Source of the DNA: Escherichia phage APCEc01
Sequence record: NC_029091.1
Strand: one strand, 5' to 3'
DNA length: 64,000 nucleotides
The notes beneath the pieces were generated by a model. The model was given only the letters and a program-made list of their open reading frames with translations, was not told where the DNA came from and ran no database searches. A program made the translations under genes and the position numbers. Shown here in pieces: positions 47,928 through 57,330 of this stretch; the stretch's first letter is position 1; every line of letters starts with the position of its first letter.

Positions 47928-50639
47928 ATGAAAGAATTTTACTTAACGGTTGAACAGATTGGTGATTCAATTTTTGAACGTTACATCGATTCTAATGGCC
48001 GTGAACGTACTCGTGAAGTAGAATATAAACCATCACTGTTTGCTCATTGTCCAGAAAGTCAGGCTACGAAATATTTCGATATCTACGGTAAGCCGTGTAC
48101 TCGTAAGTTGTTCGCTAATATGCGTGATGCCTCCCAATGGATTAAACGCATGGAAGATATCGGACTTGAAGCACTTGGCATGGACGATTTCAAATTGGCG
48201 TATTTGTCTGACACTTATAACTATGAAATCAAATACGACCATACAAAAATTCGTGTGGCTAACTTCGACATCGAAGTAACATCTCCGGACGGGTTCCCTG
48301 AGCCGTCACAAGCAAAACATCCGATTGATGCTATCACCCATTATGACTCAATTGACGACAGGTTCTACGTATTTGATCTATTGAATTCTCCATATGGTAA
48401 TGTAGAAGAATGGTCTATTGAAATCGCTGCTAAGCTTCAAGAACAAGGCGGTGATGAAGTTCCATCTGAAATTATCGATAAAATCATTTATATGCCGTTC
48501 GATAACGAAAAAGAATTGTTGATGGAATATCTCAACTTCTGGCAACAGAAAACTCCTGTCATTTTGACTGGATGGAACGTTGAGTCATTTGATATTCCAT
48601 ATGTGTATAACCGAATCAAGAATATTTTTGGCGAATCTACTGCGAAACGTTTATCGCCACATCGTAAAACTCGTGTTAAAGTTATCGAAAACATGTATGG
48701 TTCTCGTGAAATCATTACATTGTTCGGTATCTCTGTTCTTGATTACATTGGCCTTTACAAAAAATTCTCTTTTACCAATCAACCGTCGTATTCTCTGGAT
48801 TACATTTCAGAATTTGAATTGAACGTTGGTAAACTGAAATATGACGGCCCTATTTCTAAGCTTCGTGAAAGCAATCACCAACGATATATTTCTTATAACA
48901 TTATCGACGTGTATCGTGTATTGCAAATTGATGCTAAGCGTCAGTTCATCAACTTGAGCTTGGACATGGGTTATTATGCTAAGATACAGATTCAATCTGT
49001 GTTTAGCCCAATTAAAACATGGGATGCTATTATTTTTAATAGCCTTAAAGAGCAGAACAAGGTGATTCCACAAGGTCGTTCTCACCCGGTTCAACCTTAT
49101 CCCGGCGCTTTTGTTAAGGAACCTATTCCAAATCGATACAAATATGTAATGAGTTTCGACCTTACATCTCTGTATCCAAGTATTATTCGCCAAGTGAATA
49201 TTAGCCCGGAAACAATAGCAGGAACGTTTAAAGTAGCTCCATTGCATGATTATATTAACGCAATCGCTGAACGTCCTTCAGATGTGTACAGTTGCTCTCC
49301 TAACGGCATGATGTATTATAAAGACCGTGATGGTGTAGTTCCAACTGAAATCACTAAGGTCTTTAATCAACGTAAAGAACATAAAGGTTACATGCTTGCA
49401 GCTCAACGTAATGGTGAAATAATTAAAGAGGCATTGCATAATCCTAATCTTTCTGTTGACGAACCATTAGATGTTGATTATCGTTTCGACTTCAGTGATG
49501 AGATTAAAGAAAAGATTAAAAAGTTGTCTGCTAAATCTCTTAATGAAATGTTGTTTAGAGCTCAACGTACTGAAGTTGCAGGTATGACCGCACAAATTAA
49601 CCGTAAATTGCTTATCAACTCACTTTATGGTGCACTTGGCAACGTTTGGTTCCGTTATTATGATTTGCGTAATGCTACTGCAATCACAACATTCGGGCAA
49701 ATGGCTTTACAGTGGATTGAACGTAAAGTTAATGAATATCTGAATGAAGTTTGTGGTACAGAAGGTGAAGCTTTCGTTCTATATGGTGATACAGACTCTA
49801 TTTACGTATCTGCTGATAAAATTATCGATAAGGTTGGTGAATCTAAATTCCGTGATACCAACCATTGGGTAGACTTCTTAGATAAGTTTGCACGTGAACG
49901 TATGGAACCTGCTATTGATAGAGGTTTCCGTGAAATGTGTGAATACATGAACAATAAACAACACTTAATGTTCATGGACCGAGAAGCTATCGCTGGTCCT
50001 CCGCTCGGTTCTAAAGGTATTGGTGGATTCTGGACTGGTAAGAAACGTTATGCATTAAACGTGTGGGATATGGAAGGAACCAGATACGCTGAGCCTAAAC
50101 TCAAAATCATGGGTCTAGAGACTCAGAAATCTTCGACCCCTAAAGCAGTACAGAAAGCTCTTAAAGAATGTATTCGTCGTATGCTTCAAGAAGGTGAAGA
50201 ATCATTACAAGAATATTTTAAAGAGTTTGAAAAAGAATTCCGTCAATTGAATTATATTAGCATCGCGTCGGTATCTTCTGCGAATAACATTGCTAAATAC
50301 GACGTAGGTGGATTCCCGGGTCCTAAATGCCCGTTCCATATTCGTGGAATTCTGACATATAACCGAGCTATCAAAGGTAATATTGATGCACCACAAGTTG
50401 TAGAAGGTGAAAAAGTATATGTTCTGCCTTTACGTGAAGGAAACCCATTCGGTGATAAATGTATCGCATGGCCTTCTGGTACTGAAATCACAGATTTAAT
50501 TAAAGACGATGTACTTCATTGGATGGACTACACTGTTCTCCTTGAGAAGACATTTATTAAACCACTTGAAGGATTCACATCAGCAGCTAAACTCGATTAC
50601 GAGAAGAAAGCATCTCTGTTCGATATGTTTGATTTTTGA
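47928..50639 (+). CDS. 43: DNA polymerase gp43 (family B, with 3'-5' exonuclease)
   Basis: 903 aa; MKEFYLTVEQIGDSIFERYIDSNGRERTREVEYKPSLFAHCPES...; exo motifs FDIEV and NVESFDIPYVY, pol motifs SLYPSII and YGDTDS; matches my memory of the RB69 polymerase. Confidence 0.97.
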   Translation: MKEFYLTVEQIGDSIFERYIDSNGRERTREVEYKPSLFAHCPESQATKYFDIYGKPCTRKLFANMRDASQWIKRMEDIGLEALGMDDFKLAYLSDTYNYEIKYDHTKIRVANFDIEVTSPDGFPEPSQAKHPIDAITHYDSIDDRFYVFDLLNSPYGNVEEWSIEIAAKLQEQGGDEVPSEIIDKIIYMPFDNEKELLMEYLNFWQQKTPVILTGWNVESFDIPYVYNRIKNIFGESTAKRLSPHRKTRVKVIENMYGSREIITLFGISVLDYIGLYKKFSFTNQPSYSLDYISEFELNVGKLKYDGPISKLRESNHQRYISYNIIDVYRVLQIDAKRQFINLSLDMGYYAKIQIQSVFSPIKTWDAIIFNSLKEQNKVIPQGRSHPVQPYPGAFVKEPIPNRYKYVMSFDLTSLYPSIIRQVNISPETIAGTFKVAPLHDYINAIAERPSDVYSCSPNGMMYYKDRDGVVPTEITKVFNQRKEHKGYMLAAQRNGEIIKEALHNPNLSVDEPLDVDYRFDFSDEIKEKIKKLSAKSLNEMLFRAQRTEVAGMTAQINRKLLINSLYGALGNVWFRYYDLRNATAITTFGQMALQWIERKVNEYLNEVCGTEGEAFVLYGDTDSIYVSADKIIDKVGESKFRDTNHWVDFLDKFARERMEPAIDRGFREMCEYMNNKQHLMFMDREAIAGPPLGSKGIGGFWTGKKRYALNVWDMEGTRYAEPKLKIMGLETQKSSTPKAVQKALKECIRRMLQEGEESLQEYFKEFEKEFRQLNYISIASVSSANNIAKYDVGGFPGPKCPFHIRGILTYNRAIKGNIDAPQVVEGEKVYVLPLREGNPFGDKCIAWPSGTEITDLIKDDVLHWMDYTVLLEKTFIKPLEGFTSAAKLDYEKKASLFDMFDF

Positions 50640-50679
50640 TATAATGCCAAGGACGGCCAACTAATTAAATGAGAGAAAT

Positions 50680-51315
50680 ATGAAAACTACTCCTATTACT
50701 ATCGCTATTGACGCAATCGTAAAACAAGCTTCATCTCTTGCCACTATGGCTAAAGTAATTAGTCAAAACCCTGCTCGTTATAATGCTATTCTAGAAACTC
50801 TTCGACGCCCTGGACTTAGTAATTATGAAAGCCGGGTAATTATTACAGGTGTTGGTAAGAATGCTAATATCGCAACTAAAGCTTCCGAGACTTTTGCTTC
50901 ACTAGGTATTCCTAGCATGTATTTGAACACCGGGCATTATTCTCATGGTGACGCAGGATTTATTGCGCCTAATGACGTGTTGATTCATATTAGTCGTTCT
51001 GGTAAAACTGAAGAAATGATAGGTGTTGCTAAACATCTTCGTATGATTCGTCCTCAGGTTAAACAGATTCTGTTACATTGTAACCCAGACATTCCACAAG
51101 AATACGAAGCTCTTTTTGATTATACGTTCTGTACCGGTATCGCGGTAGAAGTTGACGAGAACTCTTTAGCTCCGACTATGTCCACTACATTGTTGTTAGC
51201 GCTTATCGATACGTTTGCTATCAACCTTTCGTCTGAACGTGGATTTACCTCTAATGATTTCCTTAAGTTCCATCCAGGCGGTGCACTAGGTGCCATGTTA
51301 CGAGGCGAACAATGA
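50680..51315 (+). CDS. SIS-domain sugar-phosphate isomerase (KdsD/GutQ-like arabinose-5-phosphate isomerase candidate)
   Basis: 211 aa; SIS motifs ITGVGKNANIATKASETFASLGIP and IHISRSGKTEE; C-terminal FHPGGALGAML as in API enzymes; no CBS domains. Confidence 0.65.
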   Translation: MKTTPITIAIDAIVKQASSLATMAKVISQNPARYNAILETLRRPGLSNYESRVIITGVGKNANIATKASETFASLGIPSMYLNTGHYSHGDAGFIAPNDVLIHISRSGKTEEMIGVAKHLRMIRPQVKQILLHCNPDIPQEYEALFDYTFCTGIAVEVDENSLAPTMSTTLLLALIDTFAINLSSERGFTSNDFLKFHPGGALGAMLRGEQ

Positions 51316-51452
51316 AAGCAATAACAATAGGACTTTTACTATTGATGCTTGTCATGACTATCTACTGGAGCTTAACGGCTCCGGTAATGATTCCAACACT
51401 TGTAATTGGATGGATTATGATTGGACTACAAGCAAAGTATGAATGCTTTAAC
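51312..51452 (+). CDS. small hydrophobic membrane peptide (46 aa; possible Imm-like remnant)
   Basis: ATG 51312 overlaps upstream stop; MKAITIGLLLLMLVMTIYWSLTAPVMIPTLVIGWIMIGLQAKYECFN; below track size threshold. Confidence 0.4.
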
Positions 51453-51496
51453 TAGAATAGTGTACAATACTCCTACTTACCAATGAGGACTTCAAC

Positions 51497-53182
51497 ATGA
51501 AAAAAGCTGTTATTCTTGGTGCTGGACTGGCAACTCGTTTGTATCCAATAACGCATCATATTCCTAAGGTGCTTGTTAATTATAAACAAGACACTATTCT
51601 GAGCAATTTGTATACAATTTATTCTGACCTTGGCGCAGATGAAATTATTGTAGTAGTTCATTCAAAATTTGCTGAAACTGTTCGAGCTTATTGTGAGCAA
51701 GAAGGGTTCAATGTGACTATTCGTACAGTTGATGAAGCGTATGGTTCTGCTTATGCTCTTGCTAAATTACACAAAGATTTAGACGGCCATAATGTAATTG
51801 TTAACTGGTGTGATATTATTCCTGATTTTGGTTCATGGTCTTGGAATGTTAACGCAATCTATGTTAAGGGTGACGAATGTCGATATAATTTCGACGGTGA
51901 AAATATCACTAACGTAGGTTCAACAGGTGGTAATGTTGTAGGAATTTATCAGTTCAAAGACTGGGAATTCTATATGGGTTCTACCGATGAGGAAATTCAT
52001 GAATACTGCAAAGGACGTGATTTCGTAGAATTCCTTTACGGCAGCGCATTCAATAAATCAGAGCTTATGAATATAATTGATTTAGGTGATATGCCTAAAC
52101 TTGAAAAGGCTCATGAAGTTCGTGAACTTAATCGTAGTTTTAATGCAGTTGAAATTGGTGAAGAAACTGTAACTAAATTCGCATTAACCGAACAGGGTCG
52201 AGCTCTTCAGAAAGATGAGATTTCGTGGTATTTGAAAGTGAAATCAGATTCAGTTCCTCAGTTAGTTTCTGTTAATGAAAATAACTTTGAAATGGAACGC
52301 ATTAAAGGTAAGCCAGCATTTGAATATATTAAATCCAAATCAAGTCTTGCTCGTCCACAAATTGTTGATGCAATTTTAGATGCACTGAAATTCAGCACAG
52401 ACACTTATTTTGTAAGTCCTGAAACTGTTCGTCGTGATTTCACTAAAGAATTCTATACGAAAGTTATTGATCGTTGTGAAAGCATTCAACCGTTGATTGA
52501 TTCATTTGGTAAAATCACACATGTGAACTACACTAAGATTGGACGTCTGAAGCCAATGCTGAAACAAGCTTTAGAACACCTTATTCGGTATCATAACCGT
52601 TCTCAGGGACAGTACTCTGTTATTCACGGTGACCCGAACTTCAGTAATACTATGATTACTGATAACGGCGAAGTCAAGTTTATCGACCCTCGTGGATATT
52701 TTGGCGAAACCAAGATTTACGGGCCAAAATTGTATGATGAAGCTAAAGTGCTTTATGCTGTTTCAGGTTATGATGAATTCAATGCTAATCCGACCTGGGG
52801 GCAGTTTACTATTGATGAAACAACTTGTAATGTGACTATTAACATCAATCCATTAGTTTACAAATATGGAAAGATGAGTTCGTTTAACGAGTATCATCAT
52901 TTGGCAGTGGCAATTATCTGGATTGCATTAGGTGGTTATTTCAAGAATAATCCACTTAAAGCGGTAGCCGCATATTATAAAGGTATGGAACTTCTGACTA
53001 AGCAATTACGTAACATGGGCCGTGTACTTCAGGACGGCTCTATTAGTTATGACGTAGCAGAACCTGTAACGGCTACTCTGATTACAAAAAATCCTGGTAA
53101 ATGGGTACTAACTGATAAAGAAACTGGTGTTTCCTATCGTCCAATCGGTGGCGATATCACTCATCAATGGGAACGAATCTAA
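51497..53182 (+). CDS. bifunctional sugar-1-phosphate nucleotidyltransferase / anomeric sugar kinase (APH-ChoK fold)
   Basis: 561 aa; N-terminal AVILGAGLATRLYPITHHIPKVLV pyrophosphorylase signature; C-terminal IHGDPNFSNTMITDNGEVKFIDPRGYFG matches the HxDxxxxN catalytic loop and Dxx metal motif of APH/choline-kinase-like kinases. Confidence 0.7.
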   Translation: MKKAVILGAGLATRLYPITHHIPKVLVNYKQDTILSNLYTIYSDLGADEIIVVVHSKFAETVRAYCEQEGFNVTIRTVDEAYGSAYALAKLHKDLDGHNVIVNWCDIIPDFGSWSWNVNAIYVKGDECRYNFDGENITNVGSTGGNVVGIYQFKDWEFYMGSTDEEIHEYCKGRDFVEFLYGSAFNKSELMNIIDLGDMPKLEKAHEVRELNRSFNAVEIGEETVTKFALTEQGRALQKDEISWYLKVKSDSVPQLVSVNENNFEMERIKGKPAFEYIKSKSSLARPQIVDAILDALKFSTDTYFVSPETVRRDFTKEFYTKVIDRCESIQPLIDSFGKITHVNYTKIGRLKPMLKQALEHLIRYHNRSQGQYSVIHGDPNFSNTMITDNGEVKFIDPRGYFGETKIYGPKLYDEAKVLYAVSGYDEFNANPTWGQFTIDETTCNVTININPLVYKYGKMSSFNEYHHLAVAIIWIALGGYFKNNPLKAVAAYYKGMELLTKQLRNMGRVLQDGSISYDVAEPVTATLITKNPGKWVLTDKETGVSYRPIGGDITHQWERI

Positions 53183-53568
53183 TGCACCGTGTAGAAAACA
53201 TGCTTAATCTTTGTTTTGATGTCGATGATTGTATAACAGAGTGGAATAACAATCGTGATTACGTGAACTTCAAACCTGACGTCGAAATGGTGTCTGCCAT
53301 TAATGCCCTGTATGATGCAGGGCATACCATAACGCTTTACACTGCTCGCGGTATGAAGTCAGTAGGTCCTGGTCGTATAGCAATTGACATTCTCCCAAGT
53401 CTTATTCAGAACTTGGCAAACATTGGCTTGAAGTACCATAATTTGCTAACACATAAACCAGTATATGATTGGATTATCGACGACAAAGCTATGCGTCCTG
53501 ACGAATTCAAAGCTCTTATGAATAAAGGCGAATTCGAAACATTTAAATCATATAAACCGAATCTATAA
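53182..53568 (+). CDS. HAD-superfamily phosphatase
   Basis: ATG 53182 overlapping upstream stop (TAATG); 128 aa; motif I DVDDCIT near N-terminus, TARG and DDK motifs downstream. Confidence 0.6.
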   Translation: MHRVENMLNLCFDVDDCITEWNNNRDYVNFKPDVEMVSAINALYDAGHTITLYTARGMKSVGPGRIAIDILPSLIQNLANIGLKYHNLLTHKPVYDWIIDDKAMRPDEFKALMNKGEFETFKSYKPNL

Positions 53569-53628
53569 TAATTTAAGTAAGACCTGCAAAAAAAAACCAT
53601 CGCATCAATTAACGCGAGATGCAAAAAA

Positions 53629-54789
53629 ATGAATACTTTTAAAATCGGAACGAATTTTGATTTAGCTCTTCTTGATAAAATCGTAGAGCTCAATAAAACT
53701 TATCCTAATAGCTTGATAAATGAAGTATACGGCTCTACAAGAGAAATGGCTTTTGTAGCAGCCAGACCTGATTTTAGGCTTCCTGACGTTGACAAAAAGA
53801 TGTTAGAAGATTACGTTAAACGTTGTAACGAATTAGGTATTTGCTTTAACTATACACTCAACACGATAAATCCTGGTTCAAAAAGAGAACTAGTTGAGTG
53901 GAAGAAGAAAGCTATTCAGGATTATGTTCAGTATCTTTGGTCAATAGGCGTATGGCGTATTACTATCGCTAACCCTGTTGTTATGGAAATTGTTCGTGAA
54001 GTCAATAAAGACATTGAGATTGAAGTTTCAACAATTCTACATGTCGATGCTGTAACTCAAATCAAATACTTGCATGACCAATATAATATCAAAAAGGTCT
54101 GCTGTGGAATTCATAAGAACCGTTCAGTTTCTTTCCTGAAGCGTGCAGCAGAGTTTTGCAATAAGAACAATATAATATTTGAAGTTCTTGTAAATGAGTT
54201 CTGTTCTAATGCTGGTAAAGGGTATACAACACATTGTAGCTATCGTGACTCTTGCTATATTTTCCATAGTACTGATGTTACAGCTGATGATGCTAAATCC
54301 TTAAACGGATATCCTATGCAGCACTGTATTAAAGCTCGTGATACAGACCCATTTAACTGGTTGAGAACTCGTTTTGTTCGTCCTCAAGATTTGAAACTTT
54401 ATAATGATATTGGTATCACTCAATTCAAAGTTTCAGGACGTACAGGTAGCACAGACTACATTTTGAAAGTTCTTGAAGCATACGCTTCTGAAAAGTTTGA
54501 AGGTAATTTGTTAGAACTGTGGAAGCCTTTAGAGACTATTTTCACTCTTGAAAACGAAACTGAGTTTTCACATACAGTAAATATTGAAACCTCTTTGTTA
54601 GATGGCTTTTTAGAAAAAAGGTGGTTCAGACATCCAGATTTCGATTGTGCTAATGAAATCTGCGGGACGACGTGTACATATTGTGAAAGATATTATAAAC
54701 GTCAATTATCTAAAAACGGGTTAGCAGAAAACTCTATATCTATTATTGATATAACTAACTCTGATGACGCTTTGAGGTACCCGGAATGA
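53629..54789 (+). CDS. Cys-cluster enzyme of unknown function (possible U32-like/TIM-barrel or transferase)
   Basis: 386 aa; internal EFCSNAGKGYTTHCSYRDSCY and C-terminal CANEICGTTCTYCERYY Cys clusters; family not confidently recognised. Confidence 0.5.
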   Translation: MNTFKIGTNFDLALLDKIVELNKTYPNSLINEVYGSTREMAFVAARPDFRLPDVDKKMLEDYVKRCNELGICFNYTLNTINPGSKRELVEWKKKAIQDYVQYLWSIGVWRITIANPVVMEIVREVNKDIEIEVSTILHVDAVTQIKYLHDQYNIKKVCCGIHKNRSVSFLKRAAEFCNKNNIIFEVLVNEFCSNAGKGYTTHCSYRDSCYIFHSTDVTADDAKSLNGYPMQHCIKARDTDPFNWLRTRFVRPQDLKLYNDIGITQFKVSGRTGSTDYILKVLEAYASEKFEGNLLELWKPLETIFTLENETEFSHTVNIETSLLDGFLEKRWFRHPDFDCANEICGTTCTYCERYYKRQLSKNGLAENSISIIDITNSDDALRYPE

Positions 54790-55025
54790 TTTCTAGAAAA
54801 ACTTTTAACCACCAACTTAATGAAGAGATTTTGACTATGAAACTGAACACTAATGAACAAATTCTTAAAAAGGCCCATCAGGGCCTTTTTGAAACTAAAG
54901 CGGCTAAAGTGATTAAAGAACCTGTTCAATTAGAATACTACGCTGATGCATTTCTTCATAGTGTTCTTGGAAGTATCGATGCCGAAGCTTTACGTTATAT
55001 CAATATTGCCAAGAAATTCAAATAA
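54786..55025 (+). CDS. hypothetical protein
   Basis: 79 aa; ATGA overlap with upstream gene. Confidence 0.45.
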   Translation: MISRKTFNHQLNEEILTMKLNTNEQILKKAHQGLFETKAAKVIKEPVQLEYYADAFLHSVLGSIDAEALRYINIAKKFK

Positions 55026-55047
55026 GCTTTACGAATTGAGTATATAA
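55023..55047 (+). promoter_or_regulatory. candidate MotA-dependent middle promoter for gene 42
   Basis: AAGCTTTA MotA-box-like sequence 11 nt upstream of TATAAT at 55042. Confidence 0.4.
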
Positions 55048-55066
55048 TAATTGTATTGAGGTAAAC

Positions 55067-55783
55067 ATGGGAAAACATAACACAATGAAATATATCAAAG
55101 CCGCAGATTTTCAAACCGCATTTAAAGCAGTCAATCGTGAAATTTTAGAAAACCCGGAATTCGTAACTGATTCTCGTATTGGACGTTGTAATGAAATTGG
55201 GTCTATGACAGTAGTTGTTGACACTCCATCATCATTCAAAATGACCGACCCACGTATTAACCGCATCTCTTATGAATATGCCGAAGACTTCTGGAAGTTT
55301 ATGATTTCTGGTGGTACCAACGCAGAAGAAGCGTTTAAGGCATATCCTAATGTCGCTAAATTTATTTCTAAACCAAAATCAGATGTTTTGCCGGCGAACT
55401 TCAACACTTTCTATGGTCCTCGCATTGCGGCTCAATTACCAGCTCTTCTAAAAGAACTTAAAGAGAAGCCTAACTCCCGAAGAGTTGTGTTCCAAATTCT
55501 AGAAAGTTCTGATCAGGCTTTGCTTGATTCGGACGAAACGCTTGAATATCCATGTACTGACTCAGTGACTTATTATATTCGTGATGGTAAGCTTTATACC
55601 CACTGTCATATGCGTTCTCAGAACTGTGCTGTTGTTATGCAGTTGGATTTTTATCTCCAAGGAAAATTACTTCATTATATCGCTAACGAATGTGGTGTAG
55701 AAGTTGGTGATTATACTCATACCATGGTAAGTGCCCATGTGTTTGAACGTGATTTTGATTATGTTAAAGGATTCCTTGACTAA
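55067..55783 (+). CDS. 42: dCMP hydroxymethylase gp42 (thymidylate-synthase fold)
   Basis: 238 aa; TS-family landmarks SRRVVFQ, nucleophile PCTD, MRSQNCAVVMQLDF, SAHVF; only TS-like gene here; position between 43 and uvsX as in T4. Confidence 0.7.
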   Translation: MGKHNTMKYIKAADFQTAFKAVNREILENPEFVTDSRIGRCNEIGSMTVVVDTPSSFKMTDPRINRISYEYAEDFWKFMISGGTNAEEAFKAYPNVAKFISKPKSDVLPANFNTFYGPRIAAQLPALLKELKEKPNSRRVVFQILESSDQALLDSDETLEYPCTDSVTYYIRDGKLYTHCHMRSQNCAVVMQLDFYLQGKLLHYIANECGVEVGDYTHTMVSAHVFERDFDYVKGFLD

Positions 55784-56682
55784 TGGCTATTTTCCGCGTA
55801 CCTATCTTGAGTATGCGGTCTTATGAAACTGGACAGTATGCTATCCTTAAGGATGGCAACTTCCAACTTCATTTGCACCGTGCTAATCCGGGTGATGTGA
55901 TTACATATCCACGTAATGCATCTGATATTAAAGAATGCGAACGTCTTTTTCCAGAATTTAAGTTTGTTCCATTATGGTATAAAGATAACGCGTATAACAC
56001 TCGTAAATATTTCTGGTCTGAAAATGAATTTGTGGTTGATTCATTAATTGCTTATTATGACTGTGATTTTCTAATCACAGATATCACTGGATATGACGGC
56101 GCTTTTGATGTGGAATTCAATTTCAATATCACTGCAGACCCTAATAAACCACGTTTTTATATTGACGAATTCTTAAAAACCGATATGTTGTCGGTTAATC
56201 GTTCACTTCAAACTACTGTGTTGAATGAACGTCAAAAAGAAGTGCTGGTTAACGCTGGTGCAGATGGTAATAAGATTATCGTAACGCAGAAAGTTATACG
56301 TCCTTCCATCATGCAGCGTCTTGTAGGTGATTTGGCTCCTATTCATCTAGATGGTATTTTTCATCCATTTCGAATTAGTGACCCATGCTATCGTTTTGAA
56401 CAAGTTGTTGAATGCGCAATTCAATTAGGTCAACCGCTTTATATAACCGATCCAAATAATAGCTTCGACAGAAATAAGTATCCTGAAGAAGCGTTGATTC
56501 GAATTTTTAAACCAACTAAAACTGAGTACTATCAAATTCTTAAAGGACGTCCGAAAATTCAATATTTCGAAAATCCTGAAGAAGTATTCCATCCAGGTCT
56601 TGGTGAGTTCATCTACTTTAATGCTTTAATTTCTTCGCCGTATAATATACCTAAATATGAAGATGTCGTAATCGAGGAATAA
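55783..56682 (+). CDS. hypothetical protein occupying the beta-glucosyltransferase position (candidate modification enzyme)
   Basis: 299 aa; no resemblance to remembered T4 beta-gt; ATGG overlap with gene 42 stop. Confidence 0.5.
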   Translation: MAIFRVPILSMRSYETGQYAILKDGNFQLHLHRANPGDVITYPRNASDIKECERLFPEFKFVPLWYKDNAYNTRKYFWSENEFVVDSLIAYYDCDFLITDITGYDGAFDVEFNFNITADPNKPRFYIDEFLKTDMLSVNRSLQTTVLNERQKEVLVNAGADGNKIIVTQKVIRPSIMQRLVGDLAPIHLDGIFHPFRISDPCYRFEQVVECAIQLGQPLYITDPNNSFDRNKYPEEALIRIFKPTKTEYYQILKGRPKIQYFENPEEVFHPGLGEFIYFNALISSPYNIPKYEDVVIEE

Positions 56683-56683
56683 A

Positions 56684-57232
56684 ATGGCTAAAATTATTTT
56701 AGTAGATGGCCCAGATAATGCTGGTAAAACAACTTTCATTAATGTCATAATGGAAATTAGTGAAAGATATGTAAAGATTGATTTCCCTAAACGAACAGTT
56801 GATGGGCGTTTCGATGTTAAGTCTCGAAATGAAGTTGGCTGTTTCGAAACGATGTTGAATTATTTAGACCCTACTAAGATTTATCTGTTAGACCGTGGAT
56901 ATATTAGTAACTGGGTTTATGGACGTATTCGACAAGATGCGGACTCGATTCTTGACGTTTATGAACAGGACTATGTTCGTCTTTGCCAAAACCATGATGT
57001 GTTCACAATTATTTTAACACGTAACGAAATGACTGAAAGTTTTGAAGACGACCTTATTACTTTGTCTTCATTCGGTTTTAATACAGTCATTTCACATTTT
57101 GAAGAGTTTGCAATTCATAACAAAATCCAAACGTATCAATTACTTAATCATGATGGTGCTAACAAAGTTATAGGATTTAATGCAAGCGAACGTAATTATT
57201 TGATTACAGAAATTATCAAATGGGCTCGTTAA
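56684..57232 (+). CDS. P-loop nucleotide/nucleoside kinase-like protein
   Basis: 182 aa; Walker A ILVDGPDNAGKTT, DRGY segment; resembles dNMP/thymidylate-kinase-like P-loop kinases. Confidence 0.5.
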   Translation: MAKIILVDGPDNAGKTTFINVIMEISERYVKIDFPKRTVDGRFDVKSRNEVGCFETMLNYLDPTKIYLLDRGYISNWVYGRIRQDADSILDVYEQDYVRLCQNHDVFTIILTRNEMTESFEDDLITLSSFGFNTVISHFEEFAIHNKIQTYQLLNHDGANKVIGFNASERNYLITEIIKWAR

Positions 57233-57251
57233 GAGCCATTTAAAGTTTTAA

Positions 57252-57277
57252 ATGCTGTATAACCCTTAGTATATAAT
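57252..57277 (+). promoter_or_regulatory. candidate middle promoter for uvsX
   Basis: AAATGCTGTA (MotA-box-like) 11 nt upstream of TATAAT at 57272. Confidence 0.35.
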
Positions 57278-57330
57278 CATCTTATCTTTTAAACATGAGT
57301 AAAATATAATGATGCCTATGGAAAAATACA

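Follow-up and report, generated by a model that had tools for sequence, protein, structure and literature searches.

A gene for a predicted iron-sulphur (Fe-S) protein of the U32 family was analysed in a 64,000-nucleotide (nt) stretch of Escherichia phage APCEc01 (NC_029091.1), referred to here as the window, which comes from a member of the RB69 group of T4-like phages (Mosigvirus). The open reading frame (ORF) lies on the plus strand at 53629..54789 and encodes 386 amino acids (aa), exactly as given in an initial annotation made from the DNA letters. Its product (Pfam PF01136, PHROG 5757) is the ortholog of RB69 gp50 (NP_861740), with which it has 384 of 386 residues in common. The gene is part of a single-strand, tightly packed cassette between the gp43 polymerase and UvsX genes, the cassette for arabinosyl-5-hydroxycytosine, in agreement with the DNA-modification setting that the initial annotation had proposed. 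Over the region 50600-57300, identity to Shigella phage JK42 is 99.3%; at least 80% of this region is covered in 150 records.

To the Pfam Peptidase_U32 profile (PF01136), the protein scored 42.2 bits against a gathering threshold of 22.4 (E 7e-11), over residues 94-286 (53908..54486, plus strand; profile positions 2-192 of 233). An AlphaFold2 model based on an alignment of 44 homologs (predicted local distance difference test, pLDDT, 91.7; predicted template modelling score, pTM, 0.90) forms a TIM barrel. A Foldseek search of the Protein Data Bank (PDB) with this model, a step suggested in the initial annotation, returned 5d88 at the top (E 4.6e-7; target-normalised template modelling score 0.73), followed by generic TIM barrels. 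This entry, Mk0906 of Methanopyrus kandleri, is the only solved U32 protein; sequence identity to it is 11%, and the match is confined to the barrel. The Pfam score and the fold, together with the aligned Fe-S cysteines and the K-x-x-G-R motif described below, identify the window protein as a true member of Peptidase_U32. The protein had been described as belonging to an unknown family, which does not hold given the Pfam score, with a tentative recall of U32 (Fe-S, TIM-barrel) proteins, which turned out to be correct.

Within the family, the protein is not an equivalog of any named U32 enzyme as judged by profile models. The best NCBIfam match was to the UbiU model (NF047963), at 18.5 bits against an equivalog cut-off of 440; the TrhP model (cut-off 534) did not match the window protein and reached about 12 bits on two metagenomic homologs. 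Comparison of a subfamily profile with single UbiU and TrhP sequences by hhalign aligned the N-terminal barrel only, with low probability. No second Pfam domain, including Peptidase_U32_C, was found in the 386 aa, and a sequence search of the PDB returned nothing meaningful. A profile search of 1.84 billion representative sequences recovered 1678 relatives, 462 of them at E <= 1e-30 and mostly full-length at 340-390 aa, and on this sequence evidence the protein belongs to a large, separate U32 subfamily.

To place the cysteines, several subfamily members were aligned by MAFFT with UbiU, RlhA and TrhP of E. coli K-12. The two cysteine-containing elements singled out in the initial annotation were both located, the internal segment EFCSNAGKGYTTHCSYRDSCY at residues 190-210 (nt 54196-54258) and the C-terminal cluster at C340-x4-C345-x3-C349-x2-C352 (nt 54646-54684, plus strand). 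Alignment and conservation point to a first metal site, C192-x10-C203-x5-C209-x23-C233 (54202..54327, plus strand), as a probable [4Fe-4S] site. C203 and C209 align with C169 and C176 of UbiU, which are experimentally proven [4Fe-4S] ligands, with C169 and C176 of RlhA and with C170 and C177 of TrhP; Y210 aligns with Y177. The sequence K267-V-S-G270-R271 (54427..54441, plus strand) is the counterpart of the U32 motif K-I-E-G-R in this alignment, matching K270/G273/R274 of UbiU, K240/G243/R244 of RlhA and K287/G290/R291 of TrhP. The C-terminal cluster forms a putative second, Cys4 site for an Fe-S cluster or zinc, modelled with a local pLDDT of 90-94; in the alignment it has no counterpart in UbiU or within the first 330 residues of RlhA and TrhP.

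Ten of the 13 cysteines are invariant among 44 homologs of 48-87% identity. In a set of 51 subfamily members reaching down to 24% identity, C192, C203, C233 and the four cysteines of the second site (C340, C345, C349 and C352, with slightly variable spacing) are invariant, as are R46, N78, S134, P252, K267, R271 and Y285. Since this invariance extends over both sets, both cysteine motifs exceed chance. Position 209 is cysteine in 41 members and histidine in 10, an exchange that in sequence terms is a swap between two metal ligands. The pattern of invariant cysteines, with the exchange at position 209, indicates two four-ligand metal sites, the first a respaced counterpart of the U32 Fe-S site and the second specific to the subfamily.

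The last three cysteines, C345-x3-C349-x2-C352 (54655-54684), have the CX3CX2C spacing of radical S-adenosylmethionine (SAM) enzymes, with an aromatic residue preceding the last cysteine. A radical SAM enzyme was considered and rejected, as there was no match to Radical_SAM (PF04055), the CX3CX2C lies at the C-terminus and its spacing varies across the subfamily. The resemblance is probably coincidental, given the absent domain and the variable spacing.

These ligands bear on the label carried by most database records, that of a collagenase-type peptidase. The label follows the legacy family name and annotations, and is extremely unlikely to describe the function: characterised U32 members are Fe-S proteins of hydroxylation, and neither the eight conserved metal ligands nor the nucleotide-metabolism context of the gene fits a peptidase.

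All genes of the cassette are encoded on the plus strand. Upstream of the U32 gene lie an arabinose-5-phosphate isomerase (50680..51315; SIS domain; RB69 gp55 ortholog), a bifunctional arabinose-5-phosphate kinase/UDP-arabinose pyrophosphorylase (51497..53182; AfhE-like; RB69 gp52:53) and a HAD-type phosphatase (53167..53568; AfhF-like; RB69 gp51). Downstream, a 79-aa ORF (54786..55025; RB69 gp49, phrog_8601) overlaps the U32 stop codon (ATGA) and is followed by a ThyA-homolog 5-hydroxy-deoxycytidine monophosphate (5-hydroxy-dCMP) synthase (55067..55783; RB69 gp48 ortholog, 236 of 238 residues identical), by the 299-aa DNA arabinosyltransferase 1 (55783..56682; RB69 gp46:47 ortholog; PHROG 3891; PMC13326640) and by a thymidylate-kinase-like nucleotide kinase (56684..57232; RB69 gp45 ortholog; PHROG 761; PMC13326640, Table 1).

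The U32 gene is under strong purifying selection, with a ratio of nonsynonymous to synonymous substitution rates (dN/dS) of 0.01-0.07 wherever dS was unsaturated. In comparisons with six orthologs of 82-89% protein identity to the window protein, its dN of 0.09-0.14 was in each case below that of the ThyA-like synthase (0.13-0.24). The AfhE-like, glycosyltransferase and kinase genes gave values of 0.20-0.59, and only the phosphatase gene fell below the U32 gene, in two comparisons.

RB69 DNA carries arabinosylated 5-hydroxycytosine (Lee et al., NAR 2026, PMC13326640), and in RB69-type phages all cytosine is replaced via the nucleotide pool (PMC13326640). The ThyA homolog gp48 makes 5-hydroxy-dCMP with oxygen taken from O2, as determined by 18O2 labelling, and binds flavin (PMC13326640). 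According to the citation of He et al. 2026 in Lee et al., the gp48-type reaction has been reconstituted in vitro, and AfhE and AfhF together make UDP-arabinose (PMC13326640). Lee et al. list gp50 in Table 1 only, as a 'sugar or heterocycle reductase' with a fold match to 5d88, and their discussion refers to 'two other pyrimidine hydroxylation pathways' (the RlhA and tRNA ho5U genes) with no tie to gp50 (PMC13326640). Older papers on gp50 either mention 'homologs among peptidases' or are silent, and the BASEL annotation of the gene reads 'putative enzyme involved in UDP-arabinose biosynthesis'. In the full-text literature searched, no paper was found that ties U32 proteins, chorismate mutase or prephenate to phage DNA modification; He 2026 and Mahler 2025 fall outside this coverage and are possibly contrary or pre-empting.

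To examine the subfamily beyond T4-like phages, homologs of 40-58% identity were taken from metagenomes, IMG/VR and GTDB assemblies, giving 26 distant loci after dereplication (loci are numbered with the prefix L). Homologs of the 299-aa DNA glycosyltransferase occur at 13 of these, directly upstream of the U32 gene in 6 and elsewhere in the cluster in 7; AfhE-like genes were found at 12 loci and the isomerase at 9. A Pfam census of 139 nearest neighbours returned DAHP_synth_1 (6), Thymidylate_kin (6), SIS (5), DnaE domains (4), CM_2 (4), dCMP deaminase (3) and NTP_transferase (3), and NT5C, deoxynucleoside kinase, deoxyribosyltransferase and uracil-DNA glycosylase (UDG) were further neighbours in distant contexts. 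With filters switched off, a ThyA-like synthase profile scored above 450 bits at every T4-like locus; within the 8-10 kb visible at the distant loci it detected no ThyA-like hydroxylase, the sole match being one of 16.6 bits at L030. Within those 8-10 kb, the U32 protein is thus the sole candidate hydroxylase near the glycosylation genes of these distant phages.

This context allows a role in the sugar-donor pathway to be weighed, that of a redox or isomerising enzyme, as implied by the published 'reductase' and UDP-arabinose annotations. The location of the gene between sugar-activation and base-modifying genes would suit such a role, as would the co-occurrence of AfhE-like and isomerase genes at 9-12 of the 26 distant loci. 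Nevertheless, it is an unlikely one. To our knowledge no U32 protein acts on sugars; subfamily members also stand beside dCMP deaminase, deoxynucleoside kinase or NT5C without any sugar genes; and the linkage to chorismate mutase and 3-deoxy-D-arabino-heptulosonate 7-phosphate (DAHP) synthase described below has no place in a pentose pathway. The role is further weakened because the UDP-arabinose pathway is reported to be complete without the U32 protein: UDP-arabinofuranose was reconstituted with AfhE and AfhF alone, in the account that Lee et al. give of that work, and phage DLP3 has the same sugar modification and no U32 gene (PMC13326640). Two suggestions of the initial annotation are affected. 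The protein does not have a glycosyltransferase fold, and a sugar transferase is not supported; of an epimerase or oxidoreductase acting on the donor, 'oxidoreductase' comes closest, but the evidence favours a base or nucleotide over the donor as substrate.

Chorismate mutase forms prephenate, and DAHP synthase catalyses the first step of the pathway that leads to it. A tblastn search traced a chorismate mutase of type II to 51 records of T4-like phages (79-132 aa; 36-43 bits to Pfam CM_2 against a cut-off of 27). It is positioned between the U32 and ThyA-like genes (for example L004, 6158-6397, and also L016-L027 and L029) and, among the matches listed, is always beside a ThyA-like gene, a U32 gene or both. 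The hosts of these phages represent 12 genera: Klebsiella, Serratia, Yersinia, Enterobacter, Edwardsiella, Erwinia, Pectobacterium, Escherichia (phage EcS1), Shewanella, Providencia, Morganella and Kosakonia. One ORF of Enterobacter phage Entb_45, which overlaps the stop codon of the U32 gene, carries a chorismate mutase annotation; its product scored 40.9 bits to CM_2 against the cut-off of 27 and matched many NCBIfam chorismate mutase models. The versions in Proteus phages bear N-terminal extensions. CmoA (carboxy-SAM synthase) was considered as a consumer of the prephenate and rejected, there being no CmoA-like gene or methyltransferase in the T4-like cassettes.

Outside the T4-like phages, a fused DAHP-synthase/CM_2 gene adjoins the U32 gene at L039 (8411-9433), L042 (7302-8357), L043 (8332-9387) and L053 (11079-12197), with chorismate mutase domains of 39-86 bits, and also at L064 (6931-7959). 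These fusions, in which the chorismate mutase domain is C-terminal, come from uncultivated phages and one Gastranaerophilaceae contig, and resemble shikimate-pathway auxiliary metabolic genes. DAHP synthase alone adjoins the U32 gene at L011 and L028; for the DAHP_synth_1 neighbours, 3-deoxy-D-manno-octulosonate 8-phosphate (KDO8P) synthase was rejected as an identity, with 63 bits against 216-237 bits on DAHP synthase models. A standalone CM_2 gene (52-55 bits) directly follows the U32 gene in Romboutsia contigs and in two groups of jumbo phages, L045 and L048. Chorismate mutase, DAHP synthase or the fusion was present at 8 of the 26 dereplicated distant loci.

This linkage, in three separate architectures, favours a prephenate-dependent hydroxylase. 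Taken by itself, it supports the use of prephenate and specifies no particular substrate, and most U32 subfamilies are uncharacterised, which would leave room for a prephenate-linked Fe-S enzyme of another reaction, for example on another metabolite or cofactor during infection. We consider such a reaction improbable, since the neighbours are consistently DNA-precursor and DNA-glycosylation genes.

The hosts of the phages that carry the gene were then compared. All 220 phage records encoding the protein (at least 80% identity) have Enterobacterales or Shewanella as hosts, that is, facultative anaerobes. The AfhE-like pathway enzyme is present in 370 records, including 57 from phages of Acinetobacter, a strict aerobe, and the U32 gene was found in none of these 57. 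The cassette of Acinetobacter phage Berthold contains the isomerase, AfhE, phosphatase, ThyA-like and glycosyltransferase genes, and its slot for the U32 and chorismate mutase genes is empty. The named bacterial assemblies with a U32 match were all obligate gut anaerobes (7 of 7: Erysipelotrichales, Bacillota, Oscillospiraceae, Gastranaerophilaceae, two Romboutsia and Phocaeicola). These oxygen lifestyles of hosts and organisms, together with the O2 requirement of the known gp48 route, favour an O2-independent role.

By analogy with characterised U32 enzymes, the gene is predicted to provide an anaerobic, prephenate-dependent route to 5-hydroxy-dCMP in arabinosyl-5-hydroxycytosine phages, a reading to which we assign a probability of roughly 0.55. 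The Fe-S enzyme would hydroxylate C5 of a pyrimidine deoxynucleotide without O2, most likely converting dCMP to 5-hydroxy-dCMP, with prephenate donating the oxygen, as has been put forward for UbiU/V, TrhP and RlhA. The ThyA-like synthase (55067-55783) would make the same base in air, and the U32 route would be its anaerobic twin. After phosphorylation, the 5-hydroxy-dCMP would enter the DNA, where the neighbouring glycosyltransferase would add arabinose; in Mosigvirus, which has no chorismate mutase of its own, host PheA/TyrA would supply the prephenate. We infer the reaction, its substrate level (the deoxynucleoside monophosphate, dNMP, rather than the triphosphate or DNA), the use of prephenate and the division of labour between aerobic and anaerobic conditions. 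The gene, the family and the chemistry in outline were known; no description of the proposed substrate class, the phage setting, the phage-encoded supply of prephenate or the two-site subfamily was found in the literature covered.

Among characterised U32 enzymes, RlhA forms 5-hydroxycytidine and TrhP 5-hydroxyuridine; the two depend on prephenate but not on O2, and in UbiU/V prephenate donates the oxygen. RlhA (YdcP), which acts on C2501 of 23S rRNA, belongs to the same Pfam family as the window protein and aligns with it at the first two Fe-S cysteines and at K-x-x-G-R, and its product base, 5-hydroxycytosine, made by a prephenate-linked and O2-independent reaction, is the base that the phage needs. 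In contrast to the 386-aa phage protein, with its proposed deoxynucleotide substrate, RlhA, of 653 aa, carries a large extension at its C-terminus and modifies one rRNA residue. The cysteine spacing also differs (C-x10-C-x5-C-x23-C in the phage protein, C-x6-C-x15-C-x3-C in RlhA), and the phage protein has its own C-terminal Cys4. TrhP (YegQ) is likewise a prephenate-dependent pyrimidine C5 hydroxylase of the U32 family, paired with the unrelated O2-dependent TrhO, but acts on U34 of tRNA and has a Peptidase_U32_C domain. UbiU/V, with proven [4Fe-4S] clusters, are small-molecule U32 enzymes of similar size and the anaerobic counterparts of flavin/O2 hydroxylases; they differ in forming a heterodimer that works with UbiT on a prenylated phenol, and no such partners were found beside the phage gene. 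E. coli thus pairs O2-dependent with U32 hydroxylases twice, as UbiI/H/F with UbiU/V and as TrhO with TrhP, and by analogy the phage cassette appears to follow the TrhP/TrhO logic with a U32 protein and a ThyA-like flavoenzyme. The latter, represented by gp48, DLP3 gp80 and the HY126 homolog, has the same proposed product and is encoded two genes downstream in the cassette. It differs from the U32 protein in its thymidylate synthase fold, flavin and use of O2, and is found in all arabinosyl-5-hydroxycytosine phages examined, where the U32 gene is accessory.

Given the activity of these closest characterised relatives, the protein might instead hydroxylate host or phage tRNA or rRNA in the manner of TrhP or RlhA and so aid translation in anaerobic infection. 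This is very unlikely: the NCBIfam TrhP and UbiU models gave 12-18 bits against cut-offs of 440-534, the Peptidase_U32_C domain is absent, and the gene resides in a DNA-modification cassette and, elsewhere, beside genes of dNMP metabolism.

The same chemistry at another substrate level, on cytosine in replicated DNA, on the di- or triphosphate (dCDP or dCTP) or on another pyrimidine such as deoxyuridine monophosphate (dUMP), is rather unlikely but has some evidence in its favour. RlhA and TrhP act on polymers, and a dCMP deaminase gene is directly upstream of the U32 gene at three distant loci, where the phages would possibly hydroxylate dUMP instead of dCMP. On these large phage-like contigs the deaminase gene is upstream of or overlaps the U32 gene (L001, 7447-9086; L012, 8279-9858; L055, 9540-11110), and L001 and L012 additionally encode a DnaE-type polymerase, UDG and thymidylate kinase. 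Against a polymer substrate, the C-terminal extensions of RNA-acting U32 enzymes are absent, PF01136 being the only domain in 386 aa; replacement of cytosine through the nucleotide pool in RB69-type phages speaks against hydroxylation at the DNA level; and genes resembling thymidylate kinase rank among the most frequent neighbours, which a monophosphate product would predict.

Several observations weigh against the proposed prephenate-dependent route to 5-hydroxy-dCMP. As of a 2024 PNAS paper, direct hydroxylation in vitro had been demonstrated for no U32 enzyme. The third and fourth canonical cysteines of CX6CX15CX3/4C do not align in the window protein, whose first pair is spaced CX5C and for which C192 and C233 are displaced candidates. 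No chorismate mutase was found in the Mosigvirus lineage of the window, in which just 41 nt separate 55025 from 55067. The absence of a ThyA-like gene from distant phages applies to 8-10 kb around the U32 gene only, and the record-level association of the U32 gene with host (Fisher p 6e-29) has few independent lineages behind it. The gene is also absent from E. coli Dhakavirus JS10, and about 40 more Escherichia phage records have an AfhE-like enzyme and no U32 match. Because of these Escherichia phages, the gene must be dispensable in at least some facultative-anaerobe hosts, and it is an accessory gene.

More tentatively, and at somewhat less than even odds, the protein may found a U32 subfamily devoted to oxygen-independent hydroxylation of DNA precursors, with prephenate either borrowed from the host or brought by the phage, in some cases through a chorismate mutase or DAHP-synthase/chorismate-mutase fusion of its own. 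The subfamily would provide the sole hydroxylase in phages of obligate anaerobes, and the ThyA-type enzyme would be a later or alternative solution.

The 79-aa ORF that follows the U32 gene was considered as a diverged chorismate mutase and rejected (no Pfam or NCBIfam match, no BLASTP similarity, hhalign probability 0.15%). In Yersinia phage TG1, Pectobacterium phage PM2 and Serratia phage 92A1 a homolog of the ORF adjoins the chorismate mutase gene, and because both adjoin there, the ORF is a separate gene and not a chorismate mutase replacement. It evolves fast, with a dN/dS of 0.45; it is only 90-95% identical in most Mosigvirus records in which the U32 gene is at least 99% identical, and in public clusters it is frequently shortened to 47-58 aa. 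In phage HY126 (PP658200; L005, 6158-6400) two single-base insertions absent from the window disrupt it, and its annotation covers only 40 aa; this reflects either a sequencing error or real decay. HY126 is reportedly the phage that He et al. used for their pathway biochemistry.

Further differences from RB69 concern gene boundaries. The annotated start of RB69 gp50 (MQKM...) is three codons further upstream (RB69, L068, 4492). In the window that ATG precedes the downstream ATG by 10 nt, not 9, and is out of frame, so the ATG at 53629, common to both phages, is the likely true start. The 60-nt gap upstream of the gene (53569-53628) holds a hairpin at 53600-53617 beside an A-run, called as a minus-strand terminator-like site in a promoter/terminator scan whose counts were not above those of shuffled sequence. 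In the window, the ORFs for the AfhE-like protein (561 aa) and the glycosyltransferase (299 aa) are intact, while in the RB69 reference each is split in two (gp52/53 and gp46/47); the intact ORFs agree with Lee et al., who attribute the RB69 splits to sequencing errors (PMC13326640).

In some distant members an unannotated protein of about 265 aa is encoded directly upstream of the U32 gene (L002/L062, 7179-7982, Bacillota; L067, 5249-6052, Phocaeicola). The Bacillota island also contains NT5C, a nicotinamide mononucleotide transporter, deoxynucleoside kinase, a radical SAM/SPASM protein, a second, very divergent U32 gene and a deoxyribosyltransferase-like gene, and may represent a different nucleoside-modification system.

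5-Hydroxycytosine has been recognised recently as the sugar attachment point of RB69-type phage DNA, and its only known route needs O2. RB69-type phages need an oxygen-free source of this base because they live in the gut and destroy the dCTP pool. A prephenate-dependent U32 hydroxylase, if confirmed, would explain how these phages replicate anaerobically and would account for the chorismate mutase and DAHP synthase genes found in phages. It would be the first U32 enzyme linked to DNA instead of RNA or quinones, and its small, soluble substrate would help to reconstitute prephenate-dependent U32 hydroxylation in vitro. DNA modification, and hence resistance to restriction and CRISPR, could then hinge on oxygen and on the host aromatic pathway, which bears on phage therapy and engineering. 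If the protein is indeed the founding member of a precursor-hydroxylating subfamily, gut phages would hold a large unrecognised pool of glycosylated 5-hydroxypyrimidine DNA.

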